Shown piece after piece: positions 5,314-64,000 of a DNA stretch of 64,000 nt (position 1 is the stretch's first letter; every line of letters begins with the position of its first letter). The notes beneath the pieces were generated by a model. That model did no database searches. It was not told the DNA's origin and saw only the letters and a list, made by a program, of their open reading frames with translations. The stretch is from Myxococcota bacterium (lineage in GTDB: Bacteria > Myxococcota_A > Bradymonadia > UBA7976 > UBA1532), in the NCBI GenBank assembly GCA_036337435.1, contig JAYZEG010000062.1, positions 130,817-194,816 on the forward strand, given 5' to 3'. A program made the position numbers and the translations under genes.

Positions 5314-6729
5314 ATGGGTATCAAGGTAAACGACCGAACGCGTGCGCTTCAGGCGCAGCGCAACCTCAATCTCAACAAGCTACTTCTTTCCAAGAACTTC
5401 GAACGGTTGAGTAGCGGCTTGCGTATCAACCGGGCAAGCGACGATGCGGCCGGGCTGTCCATTAGCAGTCGAATCGACAGTCAGGTTCGCGGTATCGGTC
5501 AAGCGATGCGCAACGCGAGCGATGGGGTCTCTGCAGCGCAAACAGCGGACGCTGGTCTCAATAGTGTGACCGAGAACTTACAACGTATGAGAGAGTTGGC
5601 CGTCCAAGCATCCAACGGCACACTTACATCGTCCGACCGGAAGGCGATCCAGAGTGAAATCAATCAGCTCGGCGATGAAATCGGTTCCATCGGTGAACGA
5701 ACAACCTTCAATGGTCGAAAATTGATTGGAGGACAGGCAAGCCCCTTCCGTTTGCAGGTGGGCGCTAATTCAAGTGAATCGGTCGACCTGCCCAACGCGG
5801 ATGTACGAACCAATCAATTGGGGTCGACACCTGAGGTGACCTCTGCATCCATTGGCGGTAATGGGGTCCAGGCGGGTGACCTGTCCATAAATGGGGTCAG
5901 CATTAGAGCAACTCAGGCTGTCGATGATCAAGTATCGACGGTTCAATCGAGCGGGAGTGCCATTGCTGTCGCGGCAGCCATCAATGACTCAACGCCGAAC
6001 ACGGGTGTCTCTGCAATCGTTAATGAAACGGTGACCGCGGGCGGGCAAGTCGCTGGTGGTGGACTCGACTCTCAAAACCAGTTAACCATAAACGGGACTG
6101 CCATTACTGGAGTTCAGGTCGCAGCTGGCGACGCTGGAAATTCCCTGATTTCTGCAATCAACGCTCAATCCGACCTAACGGGTGTCACCGCATCGAGAGA
6201 TCGTTCGGGGGGCGTTGAATTGTTGGCTCAAGACGGCCGAAATATAGATGTTCAGGCGACCGGAAATGCGGAGGCCATCACGGGCCTTTCGGCGGGCACT
6301 ACCCAGGGCACGGTTACGCTCCGCGGAGATGCTCAATTCGATATTGCTGGTGCCGATCCGGCCGCCGCAGGACTTTCCGCCGGTACGGTCGGGTCGACGC
6401 AGGGCACCGCTGTAGCTGCAATTGATGTGACTACGCAAGCGGGTGCGAATGACGCTCTGGAGACCATTGATCGAGCACTCGAGCAGGTGACGAGTCAGCG
6501 TGCTCGATTCGGAGCGACCCAAAATCGATTGGAATCGACCATCAACAATTTGGCGAATACATCGGTGAACTTACAAGAATCCAATAGCCGCATTCGAGAT
6601 GCTGATTTTGCAAAAGAAGCATCGGAACTTCTTCGACGCCAAATACTGGAGCAGGCACAAATTTCTATCCTCGGGCAGTCGAACAATCTGTCAAAACAAA
6701 GTGCGATCAAGCTCCTTGGTGGAGCCTGA
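5314..6729 (+). CDS. fliC: Flagellin
   Basis: N-terminal ERLSSGLRINRASDDAAGL and LQRMRELAVQASNGT; C-terminal RARFGATQNRLE and SRIRDADFAKE; two central 'IN' motifs (LSINGVSI...AAAIN, LTINGTAI...SAIN). Confidence 0.96.
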   Translation: MGIKVNDRTRALQAQRNLNLNKLLLSKNFERLSSGLRINRASDDAAGLSISSRIDSQVRGIGQAMRNASDGVSAAQTADAGLNSVTENLQRMRELAVQASNGTLTSSDRKAIQSEINQLGDEIGSIGERTTFNGRKLIGGQASPFRLQVGANSSESVDLPNADVRTNQLGSTPEVTSASIGGNGVQAGDLSINGVSIRATQAVDDQVSTVQSSGSAIAVAAAINDSTPNTGVSAIVNETVTAGGQVAGGGLDSQNQLTINGTAITGVQVAAGDAGNSLISAINAQSDLTGVTASRDRSGGVELLAQDGRNIDVQATGNAEAITGLSAGTTQGTVTLRGDAQFDIAGADPAAAGLSAGTVGSTQGTAVAAIDVTTQAGANDALETIDRALEQVTSQRARFGATQNRLESTINNLANTSVNLQESNSRIRDADFAKEASELLRRQILEQAQISILGQSNNLSKQSAIKLLGGA

Positions 6730-27926: not shown

Positions 27927-28691
27927 GTGACTGATATCGGTCTATCGGTGGGTTTTTTGCTTGTACTCGGTGGTGTTTTTGCAGGCTACGTGAACGCAGT
28001 TGCTGGTGGTGGATCGGCGCTAACAATTCCCCTTTTCATGTATTGTGGATTAGATGCATCCCTCGCAAACGGAACCAATCGTGTCTCGGTGGGAATCCAG
28101 GCACTTTCGGCCAACTTATCCTTTAAGAAAGCGGGGGTTAAGACGGACAAAGCCGTCTTATGGCCCATTGTTTGGGTGATCATCGGTGCCACTCTTGGTG
28201 CATTCGTTGCCGTTTTGCTTCCCGCTGATTTTCTCAACATTGTGTTCTCGATCATCTTCCTCGTCTTGGCAGCCGTAATTGCCCGGGGCCCTGCACTCCT
28301 AAATCCGCCAAAGAGCACGGCCAACAGACATCCGTGGAGCACGGCCATCAGTTATACCCTTATCGGGGCTTATGGGGGGGCTTTTCAGGCTGGAGTTGGC
28401 GTTCCTTTACTCTTGGCACTCGTTCAATTGGGTGGGTTAGATGTGATCAAGGGGAATGCATTTAAAGCCCTGATCATTTTTGTTTACACAGCCATTGTTT
28501 TGTTGATTTTTAACGGCGTCGGCCAGGTCGTCTGGTTACCAGGTCTCTTGGTTGGAATGGGTGGCGTTTTTGGCAGTGTGATCGGTGCCAGTCATGTGAT
28601 TTCTAAGGGGTCGAATTTAGTGAGATGGGTGGTCATTATCATCTTATCAATCTCCGGTCTCAGAGGTCTTTGGACTGGATTGATTCACTGA
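27927..28691 (+). CDS. TauE/SafE family sulfite/anion exporter
   Basis: AGYVNAVAGGGS, ANGTNR, GAYGGAFQAGVG. Confidence 0.88.
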   Translation: MTDIGLSVGFLLVLGGVFAGYVNAVAGGGSALTIPLFMYCGLDASLANGTNRVSVGIQALSANLSFKKAGVKTDKAVLWPIVWVIIGATLGAFVAVLLPADFLNIVFSIIFLVLAAVIARGPALLNPPKSTANRHPWSTAISYTLIGAYGGAFQAGVGVPLLLALVQLGGLDVIKGNAFKALIIFVYTAIVLLIFNGVGQVVWLPGLLVGMGGVFGSVIGASHVISKGSNLVRWVVIIILSISGLRGLWTGLIH

Positions 28692-39129: not shown

Positions 39130-40767
39130 ATGATACAAAATCGTCTTGGCTGCCCTCGCCAGATTCTGGTGTGGCAATGGCTTACACTGGGTGTCACCCT
39201 CTTGGTGATTGGGTGCTCGACCAAGGCGAGAGCACAGGCCGATTCTCGCCCCGATTGCTCACTGGGTAAGGTGGTGACTCGCCAGACCCATGGTCATTGT
39301 TGCTGGCCCGGTCAGAGCTGGTCCAGGCAAAGTCTTGAATGCGTCGGCCCTGCACAGTGTCCGCCAAACTTTTCGCGCAGCGATGACGGTGTCGAGTGCA
39401 TGAGAGACTCATGCACAGGGGGTCGCATAGATGTCTCAGGGCGATGTTGCTGGCCCGGTCAGACTTGGTCAGAGACCGAGAATCGGTGCGATGGGCGCCC
39501 AATCTGTCCTGCAGGTCACACTGCGGTCGACCAACAATGCGTGCCACATAGACAATCCATTCAAGACCAGAAACTTGAGTATGAACCTGTCAAAGATGAC
39601 GCCTATGTTTTCGTTGAGAAAGGTGTTTATTCAAGGGGTTCCGAGAGGCGAGAGCCAGGGCGCTACAATAACGAGACAGCGCACACCGTTGCTTTAACTC
39701 GAGATATTTTGTTCAAGAAAACCGAAGTAACACAGCGGGAATGGCTCGGACTCATTCCGGCTAACCCAGCACTCTTTCAGCAATGCGGGCTAGATTGTCC
39801 GGTTGAGCGTGTCAATTGGTACGAGGTCTTAGAATGGTTGAATCGGCAATCACGGGCTGAAGGGTTGACCCCATGTTACCGCTTTGGAAAGTGCACGGGC
39901 ACATTGGGGGGTGGTTGTCAAAAGGTTGGTCAGAACCCACGTACCTGTGACGGAGATTATGTCTGCACCAACGTCAGCTTCATCGGACCTCAATGTTCAG
40001 GCTTTCGACTGCCTACCGAAGCCGAATGGGAATATGTAGCCCGGGCTGGAACCAGCACCTCAACCTACGCCGGCAACGTGACGGCCATGCCTGCTCGCGA
40101 TGCATTCGTACTGGATCCAATCGCGTGGTATGCCCGAAACGGTCAGGTGGACTATCCGTCTGGTCAAACGTGTTCTAGTCGGCTTAAGTATTCAGGGTCA
40201 GGCCCTCAATGCGGTACCCATGCCGTGGGTCAGAAAGTGCCAACGGACTGGGGGCATTTTGATATGCTGGGCAACGTCATGGAATGGGTTTGGGACGGCT
40301 TCGGACAATATCCCCGGCGCTCTGCTGTCGACCCGGTTCAACATTTTGGATTGGACCGGATTGTGAGGGGTGGAAGTTGGGCGAGTAACGGGCGCTTCTT
40401 ACGTGCGGCGTTGCGCAGTCGTATGAGTCCAGGCGGTCGGAATGCTGAAATTGGATTTCGGGCCGTGCGCACGGTGGTCAAGGGCGAGCCTAAACCCGCT
40501 CCCATACCACCCACTGATGAGGCGTTTGAAAGCGGCACAACACATCGTGAGGAGCCATCCACAGTCCCTGCAGTCAAGCCAGCTGGCCAGCTTCTGAAAG
40601 TTGAACGCGGTTTAATCCCCGTCGGGTCGGATAAGCCTGCTTCGACCATGAAAAAAAAATCCAGTTCAAAACGCGAGACCAAATCCAAGCCAGATAAAGA
40701 GGCCGACGAGACTCAGACCATTAAGCCCATTCGTCTGCAGTTAGTTACCGATCCTGACTCCGATTAG
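39130..40767 (+). CDS. FGE-sulfatase (SUMF1/EgtB/PvdO) domain protein with N-terminal Cys-rich repeats
   Basis: TEVTQ, CPVERVNW, FRLPTEAEWEYVARAG, DMLGNVMEW, RGGSW, IGFR; two CCWPGQxWS units. Confidence 0.9.
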   Translation: MIQNRLGCPRQILVWQWLTLGVTLLVIGCSTKARAQADSRPDCSLGKVVTRQTHGHCCWPGQSWSRQSLECVGPAQCPPNFSRSDDGVECMRDSCTGGRIDVSGRCCWPGQTWSETENRCDGRPICPAGHTAVDQQCVPHRQSIQDQKLEYEPVKDDAYVFVEKGVYSRGSERREPGRYNNETAHTVALTRDILFKKTEVTQREWLGLIPANPALFQQCGLDCPVERVNWYEVLEWLNRQSRAEGLTPCYRFGKCTGTLGGGCQKVGQNPRTCDGDYVCTNVSFIGPQCSGFRLPTEAEWEYVARAGTSTSTYAGNVTAMPARDAFVLDPIAWYARNGQVDYPSGQTCSSRLKYSGSGPQCGTHAVGQKVPTDWGHFDMLGNVMEWVWDGFGQYPRRSAVDPVQHFGLDRIVRGGSWASNGRFLRAALRSRMSPGGRNAEIGFRAVRTVVKGEPKPAPIPPTDEAFESGTTHREEPSTVPAVKPAGQLLKVERGLIPVGSDKPASTMKKKSSSKRETKSKPDKEADETQTIKPIRLQLVTDPDSD

Positions 40768-51511: not shown

Positions 51512-52258
51512 TCAACCCATGAGAGCTCGAACCATCAACCCAATGGCTGATACGCTTGCAACAGCTAGGACAGCCTTTCGAAACGGCTCACCTTCAATGC
51601 GTCCAATCAAAAATCGGCTCGCGTATAAACCGACTCCGATGGCGGGTACCAAAAAGACCGCCAGCACAATGTCCGTTTGCGAAATTAATCCGCCCGAAAC
51701 GCGAGCACCAATGGTCACGAAGAGGCCAATGATAAAGATTGTGGCAAGGCTTGAGCGTAGTGTGCCACCCCCCGAATCTCGATAAAGCAAAGCCAATGGC
51801 GGACCACCGATTGACGAGACCAGGGCACCCGTGCCAGACACCGTACCAGCAATGAGTTCTGTCATCGCGTTTCGTGGAATTCGTTGTATCAGTGTCAGTG
51901 AGATCACAGCGATCATGACGACCGCTGCGATGCTGATGTCCAGAATGAATTGACTGGCGACCTTGAGTAAGAGCACCCCGAGGCCCGCACCAATACCTCG
52001 ACCGAGCAAGACCCAGCCCAACCCTTTCAAATCGAGTGCCGCCCGTTCACGCCAGGCCATACTGACCGCCAGTGGTGCGATCAACAAGAGTTGCGGGACC
52101 GGTGCTAATCTTGGGTCGATGAGCGATAAGACAGGGACTGACAACACCGCAAATCCGAACCCAATAGTCGCCTGAAGCGTTGCCGCTACACTGGTGACCA
52201 AAAACGCGACACCGTAAACAGTGGGGGTGACTGGCAGCCAGTCTAGAATTGTTGACAT
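51512..52258 (-). CDS. TauE/SafE family exporter
   Basis: ATLQATIGFGFA, SSIGGPPLALLY; start moved to ATG 52258. Confidence 0.85.
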   Translation of the reverse strand: MSTILDWLPVTPTVYGVAFLVTSVAATLQATIGFGFAVLSVPVLSLIDPRLAPVPQLLLIAPLAVSMAWRERAALDLKGLGWVLLGRGIGAGLGVLLLKVASQFILDISIAAVVMIAVISLTLIQRIPRNAMTELIAGTVSGTGALVSSIGGPPLALLYRDSGGGTLRSSLATIFIIGLFVTIGARVSGGLISQTDIVLAVFLVPAIGVGLYASRFLIGRIEGEPFRKAVLAVASVSAIGLMVRALMG

Positions 52259-52421
52259 AAACTCGCTCGGGTTGGTTTGCGTCCGAAGATGTACCAGAAT
52301 CGAACCCAAGGTGGGCTCCGCCGGAAAATAGCATAGACTCGGGTTTAGGTCAGACATTTTACAGACGCGATAGGGGGTGCTATCGACCCTATTCAATTCA
52401 GCTCAGGTACGCGGTGAATTC

Positions 52422-57442: not shown

Positions 57443-57756
57443 AGCTGTTGCTCCTGCTGAATCTTTTTCCCGCTGGGAAATCTACACTGAAAAATAAGCG
57501 ATTGCATCAGCCTTGCGGAGACAGTCGTTCACTGGATGGCTTCCCGGTCCACGGTCCTCATCTCATCCCCGACCTTTGACTGGACGACCGATCGTCGGTT
57601 TTTCAAGCCCCGTACATGGTTAGATCCAGAGCCATTTTCATGACCAGAACCTGTCGATGGTTTGTTCGCAAATAGGTGGATCCAATATTTATGCGGCTAA
57701 TTTTATCTCAAGTTTTCTTAAAAAATGCCGTTGTGTTTAAGGGAGGCCAACAATAA

Positions 57757-57773
57757 TTGGCCCGGTGTTTGCT
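57757..57773 (+). promoter_or_regulatory. Candidate sigma54 promoter for the TPR-amidohydrolase-sulfotransferase gene
   Basis: TTGGCCCGGTGTTTGCT (GG-N10-GC with TTGCT at -12), preceded by an AT-rich tract. Confidence 0.6.
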
Positions 57774-57841
57774 TTACTAGCCGGTTGGAGATGCTCAACC
57801 AAGTTTGCTTGGGCGAGTGCAACGACAGTAGGGGACGTCAA

Positions 57842-60397
57842 ATGAGTACTGACTCACAGCCTAAAATTACGAACTTAGACGAGCTTATTGAGCAGGGTGA
57901 GCAACACTTTGCTCAGGGGCGGGTCGAGGATGCACAGCGCTGTTTTGCAGCCGCTTTGGAGTTAAATCCTGGTCACAGTGAAGCGCTCAATAATCTGGCG
58001 GTCTTGTGTCATCATTCTGGCGATCTGGACCAAGCGGAATTATTTTTTCTGCGCGCAGCCGCGCTCGCGACCGATCCGTCAGATGCATTGCTAAACCTGT
58101 CTTCAATCGCCTGGCAAGCTGCTCGAATTCCCGAATCAACAGGCTATCTCGAGCGGTGCCTGCGCTTGGAGGGGGAGACGCCGCGCGTGTTGGAACAGAT
58201 GAGTTTCATATGTGACTCCATGGGCGATCCCCATGCCGCCGCAGCACTGTACAAAAAGGCGCGACAGCTCAGCACCTCGACCAAGACGGACTGGTATGCG
58301 TCTTTTTGCGAAATCGACATCACGCCGGACCTCGATGACAAGCTTGAGCTCCAAGGCTATTTTGGACCCTCGCGAGTGCCCAAAGAGATTTTGAGCCCCC
58401 TCAAAGCGCAAGTATTGCTTTTTGAGGACGCCTACGGAAAACGAGCATTATTTGTGACCGCTGATATTTTCGGTTTTGGACAAGAAATGGTCGCTGTGAT
58501 CCGACAATTTGCGGCCATTTGGGGCATTGACCCGTCCGCCGTCATTTTAAATGCATCCCATACCCATTACGGTCCTGGCACTGTGTCGCACACAGTGGCC
58601 GGTTTGGGTCGATTTGATCACGAATTTGCCAACGATGTTTGTCAGGCGATTGGGAAGTGCCTTCCGTTACTCTATCAAAACCTACAGCCTGCAGAACTGC
58701 GGCATACGACAGCGGACGCACAGATCGGTTTTAATCGTCGGCGGAGTGTAGACGGTCTGGTGAAAATGGTGCCAAATCCAGAGGCTCATTACGAGACGAC
58801 AACACCTGTGATGTCAGTAAGGTTGCAGAACGGTCAACGCTTGCTGATGGTCAATCATGGGTGTCACCCAACGGGACTTGGCGCGTTGCCTGCGATCAGT
58901 GCGGACTACCCTGGAGAAATGAGAGAGGCGTTAACCCGGACTGACCACGCTGATGTGGTTATGTTTTTCCAAGGTGCCGCTGGCGATATTAAACAAGGTG
59001 TTCAAGTCGACAATCAAATTGGATGGATTGGCGATTATGAATCGGTGCAGATCCTCGGGCAACGTTTGGCTGCGTCGGTTGTCGCCAGCTTATCGGAGCT
59101 CAAGGATGTTCACGGCCCCCTTCGTGCAATGAGGCGTGAAGTCGTTGCGCCCCTGAAGGACAATCCGAGAGACCTGTCTGTTCTCGAGCGTCCAGAGAAT
59201 GCCCAAGTCAGTCGAGAAATGATCGAAAATTGGGCTGCCGTCGTCGATCTCATCCACCCTGATACCAAGGATTCCCTCTCTATAGAACTCGGCTGCGTGT
59301 CCATCGGTGATGTTCTCTTCGTGAGTATGCCCGGTGAGCCCATGGCCATCACAGCCGGCCGCTTACGAGAGATCAGTACTCGTCATGAATCCGTCTTTGC
59401 TCTTGGTTACACCAATGGCTTGGCTGCTTATTTTCCTGCCGATGAAATGATTCAAGAGGGCGGTTACGAAGCAAATAGCTCCTCATTCGTCTATTCTTTG
59501 CCGGCTCCGTTCGATGTCGGTGTAGAACATCAGATTTTAGAAGCGTCGTACATCTCTGGCATCGGCGTCGCACCGCCTGTGGAGACACCGCCCGCATTTC
59601 CGCGTGCTGATGATGTCCCTGGGTCGTTCTTTGTCATGTCGACAGGGCGTGCCGGTACGCAAACTCTCGCAGCGATGCTCAAGATGGCTCAAAATGCCAG
59701 TGTTTGGCATCATCCTCAGCCCTATATGATCCAGGAGACGCTGCATGCCTATCGTGGCGATATTGATCCAGGCCCGACCTTTTGGGCTGGTCGTGGACAA
59801 ATCATTCGAAGTGCCTGGGATCAGGGTTTAATCCACGGTGAGACCGATCATAATATGACCCCCTTCTGTGGCGAAATTGCCAAAGCGGTCCCAGGGGCCA
59901 AATTTGTTATTTTGGTCCGAGACCCAAGGGAATTCGTTCGTTCGGGAATGAGAAGAAACTATTATCGAGGCGTTGGTGAATGGGAAGAGGGTCGTCTGAG
60001 ACCGAGAGACGATGATCCTATCTTCGAGAGCTGGTCTAAGCGCAATCAGTTCGAGCAGGTGTGTTGGCTATGGCGCGAGACTTATGAGCACATTGAGCGA
60101 TTGCGTGGCGAGATCGGAGATGACCGCGTTTATGTATTGCGATTTGAGGACCTGGTTGCCAGCCCTGACGCGACGCGAGACCTTTTTAACTTCATCGGTC
60201 TTGATGGGTATGATGAAGCGCAGGCTCGAGCCATTCTCGGTAAAAAGATGAATGCTCAGCAGGTGGGTGATTTTCCCCATCCATCTCAATGGACAGATGA
60301 GTTGCACAAAGTGTGTTGGCGTGAAGTTGGCGAATTGGCCACTGTCTACGGTTACCCGGAAGAATACCCCAAGCGCCGTGCAGTGGGTGCGGCGTAG
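57842..60397 (+). CDS. Three-domain fusion: TPR + neutral/alkaline ceramidase-like amidohydrolase + sulfotransferase
   Basis: TPRs (about 57.88-58.26 kb); ASHTHYGP, NHGCHPT, ISADYPG, FFQGAAGD, PGEP, GYTNG, GGYE (about 58.3-59.55 kb); STGRAGTQTL, LVRDPREFVRS, LRFEDL (about 59.62-60.37 kb). Confidence 0.82.
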   Translation: MSTDSQPKITNLDELIEQGEQHFAQGRVEDAQRCFAAALELNPGHSEALNNLAVLCHHSGDLDQAELFFLRAAALATDPSDALLNLSSIAWQAARIPESTGYLERCLRLEGETPRVLEQMSFICDSMGDPHAAAALYKKARQLSTSTKTDWYASFCEIDITPDLDDKLELQGYFGPSRVPKEILSPLKAQVLLFEDAYGKRALFVTADIFGFGQEMVAVIRQFAAIWGIDPSAVILNASHTHYGPGTVSHTVAGLGRFDHEFANDVCQAIGKCLPLLYQNLQPAELRHTTADAQIGFNRRRSVDGLVKMVPNPEAHYETTTPVMSVRLQNGQRLLMVNHGCHPTGLGALPAISADYPGEMREALTRTDHADVVMFFQGAAGDIKQGVQVDNQIGWIGDYESVQILGQRLAASVVASLSELKDVHGPLRAMRREVVAPLKDNPRDLSVLERPENAQVSREMIENWAAVVDLIHPDTKDSLSIELGCVSIGDVLFVSMPGEPMAITAGRLREISTRHESVFALGYTNGLAAYFPADEMIQEGGYEANSSSFVYSLPAPFDVGVEHQILEASYISGIGVAPPVETPPAFPRADDVPGSFFVMSTGRAGTQTLAAMLKMAQNASVWHHPQPYMIQETLHAYRGDIDPGPTFWAGRGQIIRSAWDQGLIHGETDHNMTPFCGEIAKAVPGAKFVILVRDPREFVRSGMRRNYYRGVGEWEEGRLRPRDDDPIFESWSKRNQFEQVCWLWRETYEHIERLRGEIGDDRVYVLRFEDLVASPDATRDLFNFIGLDGYDEAQARAILGKKMNAQQVGDFPHPSQWTDELHKVCWREVGELATVYGYPEEYPKRRAVGAA

Positions 60398-60450
60398 CAC
60401 GATTTTTTTCGATGATAGAACGATTTTGCTTAATCAAGGAGTAAGAATCT

Positions 60451-61068
60451 ATGAGTGAGAATTCGGAAAATCCGGTCGATGGGATCGACTTCTCTCTTTG
60501 GACCCTCGATGGACCGGCCAAGAAGGAGCAGGTCGAGACGACTCAGTCAGATGCTCCAGACCAAGGGTTGGGAGAAATTGACATATCCGATTGGTCGTTG
60601 GGCCCTGAAGTCACGTCATCGGAAAGCATGTCTTCTGATGCGCAGGAAACACCTCATCCGACGAGCAATGATGAGTCTGACTTAAGTGCCGACGATTGGG
60701 TCGTTGGCGGTGAAGATGCGTTTAGTCGATCAGATTTGGACGAAGCCGGACGTTGCTTTGAAAGTGCACTTCTACTCGACCCCATCAATTCGATCGCGTT
60801 GAGTAATCTGGGGGTCGTGCATCATACACGCGGCGATTTAGATCAAGCGGAGAGGCTCTATTTGAAGGCAGCCGCATTCAACGAAACCCATGCAGATTCG
60901 TATTACGGCCTCGCACAGCTTTGGTGTGACCGCGGGAATCATGGATTGGCTCTTCGGTATGCTGCACGTGGCTTGACGCGGCAACCTGAGAATGAAGAAC
61001 TCATTGAGTTGGCGACTGCGTTGAGTGAAGTGATTGATGCACATTTAACTCAGCTGCACCCGAGTTAA
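60451..61068 (+). CDS. TPR protein with an acidic N-terminal tail
   Basis: AGRCFESALLLDP, ALSNLGVV, GDLDQAE; AAGGAG SD. Confidence 0.85.
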   Translation: MSENSENPVDGIDFSLWTLDGPAKKEQVETTQSDAPDQGLGEIDISDWSLGPEVTSSESMSSDAQETPHPTSNDESDLSADDWVVGGEDAFSRSDLDEAGRCFESALLLDPINSIALSNLGVVHHTRGDLDQAERLYLKAAAFNETHADSYYGLAQLWCDRGNHGLALRYAARGLTRQPENEELIELATALSEVIDAHLTQLHPS

Positions 61069-62549
61069 GACACACTTGCCCCAGCTTCTCTGAGCATGTC
61101 GATGACGTAATCTTGCTCAGCATCCGTCATTTGCGGATAGAGCGGCAGTGCGATTGAAAGTTTCTCTGCCAGCCATGCGTTCGGCAGATCCATAGGCTGA
61201 TAGCCAAACTCATTACCGTATAGAGATAGACCATGGATCGCCTGAGTCCCCTGGCGAGTTGCAATTCCTTTCTCAGCCAGTTTGTTCATCAGCGTGTTTC
61301 TCTGTCTATAGAGTTCTTCCCAATTACTCTGATTCGGCTCCTTTGGTGCGAATAAACAGACATATGCTTGGTATGAATGCTCTCCGCCCGTTTCAACCTT
61401 TGGGATTCTTAGCCAACCCATAGATCGAAGACGGTGGTCATAGCGCTTGGCCAATTGTCTTTTTCGGGCCAATATCTTGGGGAGTTTTTGCATTTGAACA
61501 CGACCCAATGCACCCTGCATGTCGGTCATCCGATAGTTGTACCCGAGGCGATCGAAGTCGCCTAGGAGGAAGCTGGGTGTCTCACTATCACCACTTTTCT
61601 GTTTCGGTGAGATGCCGTGGGACCGCAACGACCGAATCGAATCCATATACCCTGCGTTGCGGGTGATGAGCATGCCCCCTTCCCCTGTTGAAATCACTTT
61701 TCGAGGGTGGAAACTGAACACGCCAAACTCCCCAAAAGTGCCGACATGCTGGTTTTTGTACATGGTTCCCAGAGCGCACGCTGTGTCTTCTATCACAGCC
61801 AAGTTATGCTGCTGAGCGATCTCCATGATCTGAGCCATCGGTGCAGCTTGGCCAAATAAATGAACCGGCATAATTGCCTTGGTTTTGTCGCTTATAGCCG
61901 AATAAATGCTCTCGGCAGTCACATTAAACGTGTCCAGATCGATGTCGACTAAGACCGGTTTCGCTCGGTTATATAAAACTGAATTAGCACTTGCGACAAA
62001 TGAGAATGATGGCACGATGACTTCATCACCTTTGCCAATACAAAGTGCATTGAGAGCCAGGTGTAAACCCGTCGTGGCCGAGGTGCATGCCGCAGCACCA
62101 GCCGCATTCGTGAACTCACAGACGGATGTTTCAAATTTTTCTACTTCTGGTCCTTGGACAACCCAGCCGGTCTGCAAAGGTTTTTGGATGGCCTCACACT
62201 CATTCTCATCAAACCATGGTTTCGCAATAGGTATCTGCATTGTTTGAGGTCTAGATCCATCTTTGGTTGGTGCACATATGTAGGATAATGTGTTCTCTAG
62301 AGATAGGCCAGCAGTATCTACAGATTCTATAATCTGATGTCTCGTCCTCTCTTTTAATTTGAGCGGGCGCAATTGGTAGCCGACCCCAGCCTCGCCGCGG
62401 ATGGGGATCCCGGCCCCCACCAATGTTTTTATATCTCGGTATACAGTTCTCTCTGAAATACCAAAGATCCGAGCCAACTCAGTTGCTCTGACCACCTTGG
62501 GTTGTGAAAGCATTTTGATGGTTTGTAATAATCGCCTGGTTCTATGCAT
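61065..62549 (-). CDS. YafY-type HTH (HTH_11) fused in frame to a DegT/DnrJ/EryC1/StrS sugar aminotransferase
   Basis: RATELARIFGISERTVYRDIKTL...GEAGVGYQL; the aminotransferase begins at MQIPIAKP (62240) and has EDTACALG, SFHPRKVISTGEGG, GYNYRMTD. Confidence 0.85.
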   Translation of the reverse strand: MHRTRRLLQTIKMLSQPKVVRATELARIFGISERTVYRDIKTLVGAGIPIRGEAGVGYQLRPLKLKERTRHQIIESVDTAGLSLENTLSYICAPTKDGSRPQTMQIPIAKPWFDENECEAIQKPLQTGWVVQGPEVEKFETSVCEFTNAAGAAACTSATTGLHLALNALCIGKGDEVIVPSFSFVASANSVLYNRAKPVLVDIDLDTFNVTAESIYSAISDKTKAIMPVHLFGQAAPMAQIMEIAQQHNLAVIEDTACALGTMYKNQHVGTFGEFGVFSFHPRKVISTGEGGMLITRNAGYMDSIRSLRSHGISPKQKSGDSETPSFLLGDFDRLGYNYRMTDMQGALGRVQMQKLPKILARKRQLAKRYDHRLRSMGWLRIPKVETGGEHSYQAYVCLFAPKEPNQSNWEELYRQRNTLMNKLAEKGIATRQGTQAIHGLSLYGNEFGYQPMDLPNAWLAEKLSIALPLYPQMTDAEQDYVIDMLREAGASVS

Positions 62550-62654
62550 AAGTGGACCGCCCATTGGAATTGGTTGGCAACGATGATTCTGTTTTTATCT
62601 GAATATATGTTCAGTATTATGAAAAGTCCAAAAATCTATGTCAATGTGTTGATC

Positions 62655-63873: not shown

Positions 63874-64000
<127 letters not shown>

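Follow-up and report, generated by a model that had tools for sequence, protein, structure and literature searches.

To our knowledge, the neutral-ceramidase fold is known only as that of a lipid amidase. Eukaryotic heparan sulfate N-deacetylase/N-sulfotransferase (NDST) joins in one chain an amino-sugar N-deacetylase and a sulfotransferase that uses 3′-phosphoadenosine 5′-phosphosulfate (PAPS). The type B flagellin of C. difficile carries a sulfonated sugar, and the corresponding cluster has no identified sulfotransferase. In Caulobacter crescentus FlmG, the N-terminal tetratricopeptide repeat (TPR) domain is described as both necessary for binding flagellins and enough for it (PMC7591256), and Agl30 and Agl31 of Halobacterium salinarum are described as sulfating sugars of a protein-linked glycan that also decorates the motility filament (PMC11980604). 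Here we analyse a gene at 57842..60397 (+) of a 64,000-nucleotide stretch of DNA (the window) from a Myxococcota bacterium (contig JAYZEG010000062.1 of assembly GCA_036337435.1), which encodes, in one chain, a TPR domain, a ceramidase-fold amidohydrolase (hereafter the amidase) and a PAPS-dependent sulfotransferase. In the literature searched, we found no ceramidase–sulfotransferase fusion in bacteria (the matches listed were all on animal sphingolipids), no ceramidase-fold enzyme in flagellin glycosylation or in polysaccharide-utilisation loci and, for the flagellin glycans of bacteria, no assignment of a PAPS sulfotransferase, in agreement with the initial annotation, which did not know this architecture from characterised proteins.

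We propose, at what we judge to be an even chance, that the fusion protein is a bifunctional enzyme, soluble in the cytoplasm, that tailors glycans as part of the late flagellar programme: it would take an N-acyl group off an amino sugar and sulfate that sugar. The evidence comes from the residues conserved in the two catalytic domains, from the joint loss of one domain and of the catalytic residues of the other, and from gene context and a promoter motif.

Domains and catalytic residues of the fusion protein

The reading frame is unbroken from 57725 to 60397 (+) and would specify 890 residues counted from its first ATG (open reading frame listing and translation), or 851 from the ATG at 57842 (translation of 57842–60397). 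We prefer the latter, likely the true start, because its GGGGA ribosome-binding site, 8 nt 5′ of the ATG, is kept in the window and in orthologous loci L005 and L006, because the frame upstream of it is not conserved and drifts with indels between the window and these two, and because three orthologues, counted from the equivalent ATG, are each exactly 851 residues long. So delimited, the gene (57842..60397, stop codon included) specifies, all on the + strand, a TPR domain of about four repeats (residues 1 to about 150; 57842..58291), the neutral-ceramidase-fold amidase domain (residues about 151–565; 58292..59536), a Pro-rich linker between the two domain alignments, GIGVAPPVETPPAFPRADDVPG (residues about 566–595; 59537..59626), and the sulfotransferase domain (residues about 596–851; 59627..60394). 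The initial annotation had described a single uninterrupted frame of about 850 residues and this same three-domain order; the frame is indeed open, Pfam recovers the three domains on the window protein, and all nine motifs are found in the translation (NASHTHYGP, CHPT, SADYPG, QGAAGD, PGEP, GYTNG, GGYE, STGRAGT and RDPREFVRS).

The amidase domain was assigned by profile. Taken singly, the window protein scores 33.6 bits with Ceramidase_alk (PF04734; cut-off 32.1), over residues 158–319 only and no more than the first third of the model, at profile positions 8–174. A profile built from 36 amidase-domain sequences (that of the window protein, those of 23 translated loci and those of 12 stand-alone proteins) and compared with all PDB sequences matched neutral ceramidases only, over both halves, with E=2.2e-26 for the enzyme of P. 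aeruginosa (2zws) and E=1.6e-20 for the human one (4wgk). Counted on the profile alignment, window H240, H242, R299 and H342 correspond to H97, H99, R160 and H204 of 2zws, and E499, Y530 and Y542 to its E411, Y448 and Y460. Of these 2zws residues we take H97, H204, E411 and Y448 to be the Zn ligands, and H99, R160 and Y460 to be catalytic. Of the 36 sequences, 32 (all 20 fused and 12 stand-alone ones examined) have the same residue at each of these seven window positions and also at D208, C341 and E543, with the invariant Cys (C341) directly before the second His in the motif CHPT. The ceramidase-family assignment with a full motif set, made initially from the letters, is thus borne out, the aligned metal and catalytic residues being kept and the weak single-sequence match being firm as a profile. 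The ceramidase tail domain PF17048 gave no match on the window protein at E<=1 (Pfam), and the full-length neutral-ceramidase equivalog NF041649 fails, with 19.4 bits against a cut-off of 1200; because these two tests failed, we place the middle domain outside the ceramidase equivalog. It is, as judged from the alignments, a catalytically equipped, shortened homologue of neutral ceramidase with a predicted Zn site.

In the C-terminal domain, Sulfotransfer_3 (PF13469) scores 52.9 bits on the window protein (cut-off 27) and PF17784 27.5 bits, above its own cut-off, and a feature-based Atlas search returned sulfotransferase clusters only (score 0.97). S600, G602, R603, G605 and T606, in what we take to be the 5′-PSB loop, and R693, P695 and S701, in the presumed 3′-phosphate motif (3′-PB, RDPxxxxxS), are invariant in 34 full-length relatives, and the PAPS motifs remain invariant with stand-alone sulfotransferases added (31-sequence alignment); the two PAPS-binding motifs noticed at the outset are therefore present and conserved across relatives. 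H623 and E667 are also invariant and, by position, are candidate catalytic bases. Compared with PDB, the sulfotransferase profile matched the CurM sulfotransferase (4gbm, E=2.7e-9) and TPST2 (E=1e-4), and also OLS, TPST1, Teg12/14 and StaL, in weak, local matches with E from 2.7e-9 to 2e-2, and the acceptor cannot be read from this homology.

Pfam families TPR_2/16/12/1/19 identify the N-terminal domain (E down to 1e-14, residues about 15–150), whose matches in PDB are consensus TPR proteins and the TPR region of OGT. The domain is optional in the family, many members of about 700–750 residues being without it, and we propose that it may act as a docking module for a protein partner. Because no transmembrane segment is predicted in the 851-residue protein (maximum 19-residue hydropathy 1.54), the fusion protein is predicted to be cytoplasmic; by eye, no signal peptide was seen on it. 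A PAPS enzyme has to be cytoplasmic. The window's own genome has two genes for adenosine-5′-phosphosulfate (APS) kinase, and PAPS supply is therefore present.

Occurrence, selection and coupling of the two catalytic domains

Contigs from independent runs, at least 99% alike to the window, bridge both domain junctions: that between TPR and amidase is spanned by contig X9 record 15 (57977–58715), and that between amidase and sulfotransferase by X1 record 1 (59101–60600) and X3 record 7 (59470–59679). The initial annotation had advised checking coverage across the junctions, and by this check the fusion is not an assembly chimera. The fusion-gene stretch is present in marine or seawater runs of 13 studies, and metatranscriptome contigs from two studies cover most of the gene, which is probably expressed, carry-over of DNA into these libraries being possible. 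Its presence in seawater metagenomes and in metatranscriptome libraries, from 13 studies in all, marks its carrier as a widespread marine lineage. Compared with the 90%-identical orthologue L005, the TPR domain has a ratio of nonsynonymous to synonymous substitution rates (Ka/Ks) of 0.042, the amidase one of 0.040, the linker one of 0.047 and the sulfotransferase one of 0.031; the fusion is under purifying selection.

A search of 5.8 billion proteins gave 115 matches, the first 90 of which (P0003–P0092) had E<=1e-140. Common to these 90 is the amidase–sulfotransferase core, and we counted among them extra GSCFA domains in 24 proteins, glycosyltransferase domains of GT2 in 12 and of GT4 type in 8, hexapeptide acyltransferase domains in 3, S-adenosylmethionine (SAM) methyltransferase domains in 3 and FkbM methyltransferase domains in 2; the extra domains were confirmed on genomic loci. 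On these sequences, the family core is amidase plus sulfotransferase, and TPR, GT2, GT4, GSCFA, methyltransferase and acyltransferase modules are added variably. In an exhaustive search of representative proteins with a two-domain query, 8344 matches were obtained at E<=1e-3, hundreds of them stand-alone, and 184 at E<=1e-30. Among the best 150, both domains are covered in about 36, and the remainder are stand-alone amidases of ~420–470 residues or stand-alone sulfotransferases of ~260–300.

DNA scans revealed 23 fused loci in species genomes and 25 in metagenomes, and deduplication of 47 fused loci left 42 distinct ones; the architecture search that had been suggested at first, to see how often the fusion occurs, thus finds the domains joined in 42 distinct loci, and they are not always separate in relatives. 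Carriers are metagenome-assembled genomes (MAGs) labelled Myxococcales/Bradymonadia, Desulfobacterales and relatives, Rhodothermales and Planctomycetota. The fusion gene is rare and patchy: of 201 genomes sampled from the window's phylum, 3 carry the full fusion, as does 1 of 151 genomes of the Desulfobacterales-type order of genome G017, this one being the query genome itself, together with one form lacking the sulfotransferase. A rough neighbour-joining tree without support values, which can be taken as a hint only, has all fused amidase domains in one clade, with four sulfotransferase-less forms inside it.

The catalytic set of the amidase is invariant in every sulfotransferase-bearing member, at 35–90% identity, and R299, E499 and H342 are retained in all 20 fused sequences. 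The only multidomain relatives without any sulfotransferase are four of Desulfamplus type (L025, L028, L029 and L030), and here R299 and E499 are lost in four of four and H342 in three of four. That catalysis matters is suggested by the loss of the catalytic set only where the sulfotransferase is lost; this joint loss represents one or two evolutionary events, to which we attach no statistics, and it argues that the amidase step would be needed for, or useful only with, sulfation. In a second architecture (L087, L088, L090 and L091), the amidase is followed by ~200 residues and a divergent PF13469 domain, the catalytic set is kept, and APS kinase is encoded three genes away. APS kinase also lies directly upstream of the fusion in L014 and L023, and is near the fusion in these six loci. 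Away from the fusions, tblastn revealed no amidase within 10 kb of any of 14 sulfotransferase-only loci, and this sulfotransferase within 10 kb of none of 15 amidase-only loci, a search that misses the divergent sulfotransferase of L088 type.

The proteins of the second architecture have ~1700 residues (L088:8588–13636, +, and likewise in L087, L090 and L091) and the order SAM methyltransferase, TPR, amidase, divergent PF13469 and FemAB-like Acetyltransf_6, with an APS kinase gene two genes upstream; the last domain hints that deacylation may be followed by re-acylation and sulfation.

Flagellar and sugar-pathway context

Flagellin, FlgK, FliD, FliW or Maf is encoded near the fusion in 11 of the 42 distinct loci, and L019, with a rod gene, brings the number with a flagellar gene to 12. 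In two loci the fusion lies inside flagellin operons, with the order flagellin-CsrA-FliW-fusion-flagellin-flagellin in L072 and FlgK-FlgL-fusion-flagellin-FliD in L078. Flagellin-family genes are present in 22 of 22 fusion-carrying genomes, as compared with 83 of 201 sampled genomes of the window's phylum; the 22 carriers span several phyla, and kin among them are not independent. In the window's own clade no flagellar neighbours are seen, and the flagellar tie there is the promoter motif alone.

This bipartite promoter-like motif, TCAAGTTT-N11-GCCGTTGT (57709..57735, +), lies 107–133 nt upstream of the ATG, is conserved with a differing spacer in six orthologous loci, and resembles what we take to be the sigma-28 consensus. 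We scanned the 4.38 Mb of the own genome, using 600-nt windows, for the pattern TCAAGT[TA]T-N11-[GT]CCG[AT]TGT, in which the first −10 position may be G or T, as in L067. Five sites were found: one before flgN-flgK-flgL, one 344 nt before a flagellin gene, one 327 nt before a second flagellin gene, one before the fusion gene and one before a SprA-related gene. Controls gave no site at nine other spacings, none with the pattern reversed, none with it swapped and none in 20 shuffles. In genome G001 the motif recurs at the flgNKL region, one flagellin gene and the fusion, and in G002 at the flgNKL region, with the reversed-pattern control at zero in all three relatives searched. The own genome encodes a FliA equivalog, and no sigma-54-like pattern was found before its flagellins. 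The fusion gene thus appears, from this motif, to share a promoter class with late flagellar genes.

The SprA-related gene (C26:2303–3850, −; 515 residues, PF12118) is the only non-flagellar carrier of the strict motif besides the fusion. Of the flagellin genes in this genome, the seventh is alone in the window (5314–6729, +; 471 residues, with Flagellin_N, Flagellin_IN and Flagellin_C), and its product is 43–47% identical to the six flagellins encoded on contigs C28 and C30; family-level relatives have 7–12 flagellin-family matches each. The own flagellin clusters contain FliW, FliS, FliD and FlaG. Between flagellin genes, C28:46269–47258 and C28:49817–51736 (both −) are frames of 330 and 640 residues with no Pfam match, candidates for flagellin-modifying or chaperone proteins. 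A NeuB candidate near flagellin on C30 (22.3 bits) was rejected: its gene, which lies among those for menaquinone, encodes a DAHP synthase.

A sugar-nucleotide or glycosyltransferase gene lies within three genes of the fusion in 19 of 20 scanned loci, and the neighbours include 4,6-dehydratases/epimerases, DegT aminotransferases, dTDP-sugar isomerases, C- and O-methyltransferases (CmcI type), nucleotidyltransferases and glycosyltransferases of GT2, GT4 and GT41. In the window, a convergent gene (61065..62564, −) encodes a PseC-like DegT sugar aminotransferase fused to HTH_11 (Pfam DegT 363 bits, plus HTH_11). Its best NCBIfam match is PseC, with 322.6 bits, under the cut-off of 423.5; it is 51% identical to the DegT protein beside the fusion in a Rhodothermales MAG of another phylum (L018), and has orthologues, at 53–59%, near the fusion in L009, L067 and L070. 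These recurrences point to it as a probable partner in the same sugar pathway. A short-chain dehydrogenase/reductase (SDR), 65–69% identical to a Rhodothermales fusion neighbour, is encoded directly downstream of the fusion in L007, L068, L069 and L070, and L070 has a fuller island for the window's clade: fusion, SDR, glycosyltransferase, TPR protein, AsnB-like amidotransferase, DegT and helix-turn-helix (HTH)-WYL regulator. A dehydratase/epimerase and a PseC-like transaminase make up the textbook route to 4-amino-4,6-dideoxy sugars. Stand-alone amidase relatives in Bacteroidota and Lentisphaerae are likewise found beside DegT, SIS and MFS genes in SusC/D loci, with a DegT-type aminotransferase adjacent in five of six loci by Pfam, and also by tblastn.

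The initial annotation, which makes no mention of a flagellar link, had offered an amino-sugar glycan or an N-acyl lipid such as ceramide as substrate. The first is favoured by gene context, by the glycosyltransferase and methyltransferase domains fused in relatives, and by the PseC-like DegT and the SDR; the second found no contextual support, the sole acyl-CoA-type neighbour being MenB. This upstream crotonase-fold (enoyl-CoA-hydratase) gene had been considered as an acyl-lipid link and was rejected on its MenB score (579 bits, cut-off 378), which marks it as menaquinone housekeeping.

Between the fusion and the DegT gene, and co-oriented with the fusion, 60451..61071 (+) encodes a 205-residue cytoplasmic TPR protein (Pfam TPR) with an acidic disordered N-terminus. 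It is 32% identical to residues 10–123 of the fusion protein (E=1.7e-12), a paralogous TPR, and the gene is conserved downstream of the fusion in L005, L006 and L067. HTH_11 is also present on the DegT of L005 and L006; DegT lacks it in L067, L018 and L070, and in L070 a separate HTH_11-WYL regulator follows DegT, so that the window DegT looks like a regulator DNA-binding domain fused to an enzyme. The contig, and with it the window, ends at 63874–64000 (+) in the 5′ end of a 16S ribosomal RNA (rRNA) gene (Rfam SSU_rRNA_bacteria, 98.6 bits, model positions 1–127), and the contigs of L005 and L006 break off as well, 3.5–4.5 kb beyond the fusion gene and presumably at this same rRNA operon, so that all three assemblies lack what lies further downstream of the locus. 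Sulfur-related genes elsewhere in the window are one of FGE-sulfatase type (39130–40767, +) and two TauE/SafE genes (27927–28691, +, and 51512–52396, −), with no link to the fusion seen. In three of the loci with stand-alone amidases (L047, L050 and L052, of Parapedobacter and Parabacteroides), a block of amidase, DegT-type, MurQ-like SIS and MFS genes recurs within SusC/D loci and looks like an undescribed amino-sugar catabolic module.

Proposed role, alternatives and known systems

In the role we propose, an amino sugar would be made with the neighbouring PseC-like aminotransferase and SDR dehydratase, the Zn amidohydrolase domain would cleave an N-acyl group off it (most simply N-acetyl), and the tethered PAPS sulfotransferase would then sulfate the same sugar, on the freed amine or on a hydroxyl. 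The TPR domain would dock the enzyme, as the TPR of FlmG does, on a protein client, for which flagellin awaiting export, or a partner in flagellin glycosylation, is the likeliest candidate. Late in flagellar assembly, the amino sugar acted on would be part of the flagellin glycan or of the activated precursor to it. Our inferences here concern the substrate, which of the two reactions comes first, the choice between N- and O-sulfation and the binding of TPR to flagellin, and O-sulfation of a neighbouring hydroxyl fits as well as N-sulfation.

Several points weigh against this role. A hydrolase is odd in a route where the aminotransferase already gives a free amine, and we know of no activity, substrate or structure for any family member. 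The closest solved sulfotransferases act on polyketide, peptide and tyrosine acceptors, not on sugars. A flagellar gene lies near the fusion in 0 of about 14 distinct loci of the window's clade (L005–L011 and L064–L071), no glycosyltransferase is recognisable among the 29 open reading frames around the own flagellin clusters, and a search of the own genome, 87% complete, gave no Maf. As to the motif, the pattern was widened after viewing the orthologues and the k-mers upstream of flagellins, and is partly post hoc, and the genomes in which it was replicated are close kin; the strict motif precedes 2 of 7 flagellin genes only, with one more near match, and one of its five sites precedes the unrelated-looking SprA-family gene. 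Narrower scans (300–400-nt windows, −10 box starting with G) gave no motif shared with flagellins and were superseded by the 600-nt scan.

A bolder form of the proposal, which we hold to be doubtful, is an independent bacterial counterpart of NDST, controlled by sigma-28 and guided by TPR, in which N-acetyl would be stripped from a flagellin amino sugar or its nucleotide-sugar precursor and the amine N-sulfated. If true, the flagellar filament would carry sulfamate (N-sulfo) sugars, undescribed for any bacterial flagellin, and the large family of short ceramidase-fold hydrolases would gain a first function, as sugar N-deacylases.

The alternative that survives best, a minor possibility and yet a serious one, has the same chemistry acting on some other glycan that is put together in the cytoplasm (a surface polysaccharide linked to lipid, a unit of capsule or O-antigen, or a glycoprotein that is not flagellar), the flagellar neighbours in some relatives reflecting the habit of glycosylation islands of sitting near flagellin genes. 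It would account for the 30 of 42 distinct loci that have no flagellar gene in their flanks, for the window's clade, where the fusion sits beside menB and sugar genes only, for the Polysacc_synt_3 flippase-like, GT2 and PMT_2 genes at 1.7–11 kb in the window, and for the lack of a flagellin glycosyltransferase near the own flagellins. It fits less well with a promoter motif that, in the own genome as in G001 and G002, also marks late flagellar genes, with the embedding in the flagellin operons of L072 and L078, with flagellin-family genes in every carrier genome, and with TPR docking, which suits a protein client better than a lipid-linked one.

Unlikely, in our view, is a protein- or peptide-directed enzyme, in which a Tyr (or Ser/Thr) sulfotransferase like TPST or RaxST would be docked by the TPR and the amidase would remove an acyl group or peptide from a client such as flagellin. 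TPR domains do bind proteins, and the solved relatives of the sulfotransferase, of family PF13469, include TPST1/2 (E about 1e-4) and glycopeptide sulfotransferases; however, sugar enzymes account for the great majority of the fused and neighbouring domains, amino sugars are what the conserved DegT and SDR neighbours make, and the stand-alone amidase relatives lie in polysaccharide-utilisation loci with DegT, SIS and MFS.

We give rather little credence to an amidase that is non-hydrolytic in vivo and that either N-acylates, in reverse, the amine made by the aminotransferase, or binds an N-acyl sugar and presents it to the sulfotransferase. Neutral ceramidases do catalyse the reverse reaction, a hydrolase is unexpected after an aminotransferase step, and the sulfotransferase-less proteins of Desulfamplus type, which keep the domain without the catalytic residues, indicate that the fold can persist without catalysis. 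Yet every sulfotransferase-bearing member has the full catalytic set, which is lost only where the sulfotransferase is lost, Ka/Ks is 0.04, and with soluble substrates it is unfavourable to form an amide in reverse without activation.

A lipid-directed enzyme, which would deacylate ceramide or another N-acyl lipid and sulfate the product, so that a sulfolipid is made or remodelled, has very little to recommend it beyond a fold and catalytic residues that are those of neutral ceramidase and the sphingolipids that some Myxococcota make. No lipid-metabolism neighbour is conserved, the upstream crotonase-fold gene being MenB; no membrane segment, signal peptide or ceramidase tail domain was seen in the protein; its relatives are fused to glycosyltransferases and sugar methyltransferases; and the wider short-form amidase family lies in sugar loci. 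Ceramide is therefore an unlikely substrate. Lastly, an assembly chimera or a fused annotation of two genes has a negligible chance: the source genome is a MAG of 95 contigs, 87% complete, but both junctions are bridged by contigs of independent runs, genomes and metagenomes together supply 42 distinct loci with the same fusion, and the frame is stop-free and of conserved length.

The folds are known ones in a new combination and a new context, and the substrate class is probably new. A conserved, catalytically intact ceramidase-fold branch tied to sugar pathways offers a testable function for a very large bacterial family, and bacterial protein-glycan sulfation is almost unexplored. A clean system for studying deacylation–sulfation coupling outside animals is offered by the tight fusion itself, by catalytic residues and sulfotransferase being lost together, and by the APS kinase that recurs as a neighbour.

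Of the known systems, neutral ceramidase (PaCD, 2zws/2zxc; human ASAH2, 4wgk) has a homologous catalytic domain and shares the Zn-ligand and catalytic positions with the fusion, whose amidase domain is shorter (about 415 residues compared with about 500) and is without the C-terminal tail domain. The fusion is predicted to be cytoplasmic, whereas ceramidase is secreted or membrane-anchored, and it differs further in the Cys of CHPT, in its fused sulfotransferase and in a gene context of sugars rather than sphingolipids. The short stand-alone bacterial ceramidase-fold hydrolases (~420–470 residues) are 25–35% identical over the whole domain and have the same invariant residues, but are single-domain or with other N-terminal extensions, and found in catabolic SusC/D-SIS-MFS loci. 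NDST resembles the fusion in logic only, being a Golgi membrane enzyme that acts on a polymer and has a deacetylase of unrelated fold; the NDST deacetylase family is not among the Pfam matches of the window protein, with no direct comparison made with an NDST sequence. CurM/OLS, TPST1/2 and Teg12/Teg14/StaL belong to the PF13469/PF00685-type fold family and have the 5′-PSB and 3′-PB motifs in common with the fusion, but act on polyketide, tyrosine or glycopeptide acceptors, and none is fused to an amidase. Agl30/Agl31, likened here by function and not by sequence, are archaeal, single-domain enzymes of an N-glycan pathway described with no amidase partner (PMC11980604). FlmG has a glycosyltransferase as its catalytic domain, without amidase or sulfotransferase, unlike the fusion; as a TPR plus GT-B flagellin O-glycosyltransferase it is nonetheless described as soluble, cytoplasmic and of late flagellar timing, as the fusion is predicted to be, and is TPR-first like the fusion (PMC7591256).

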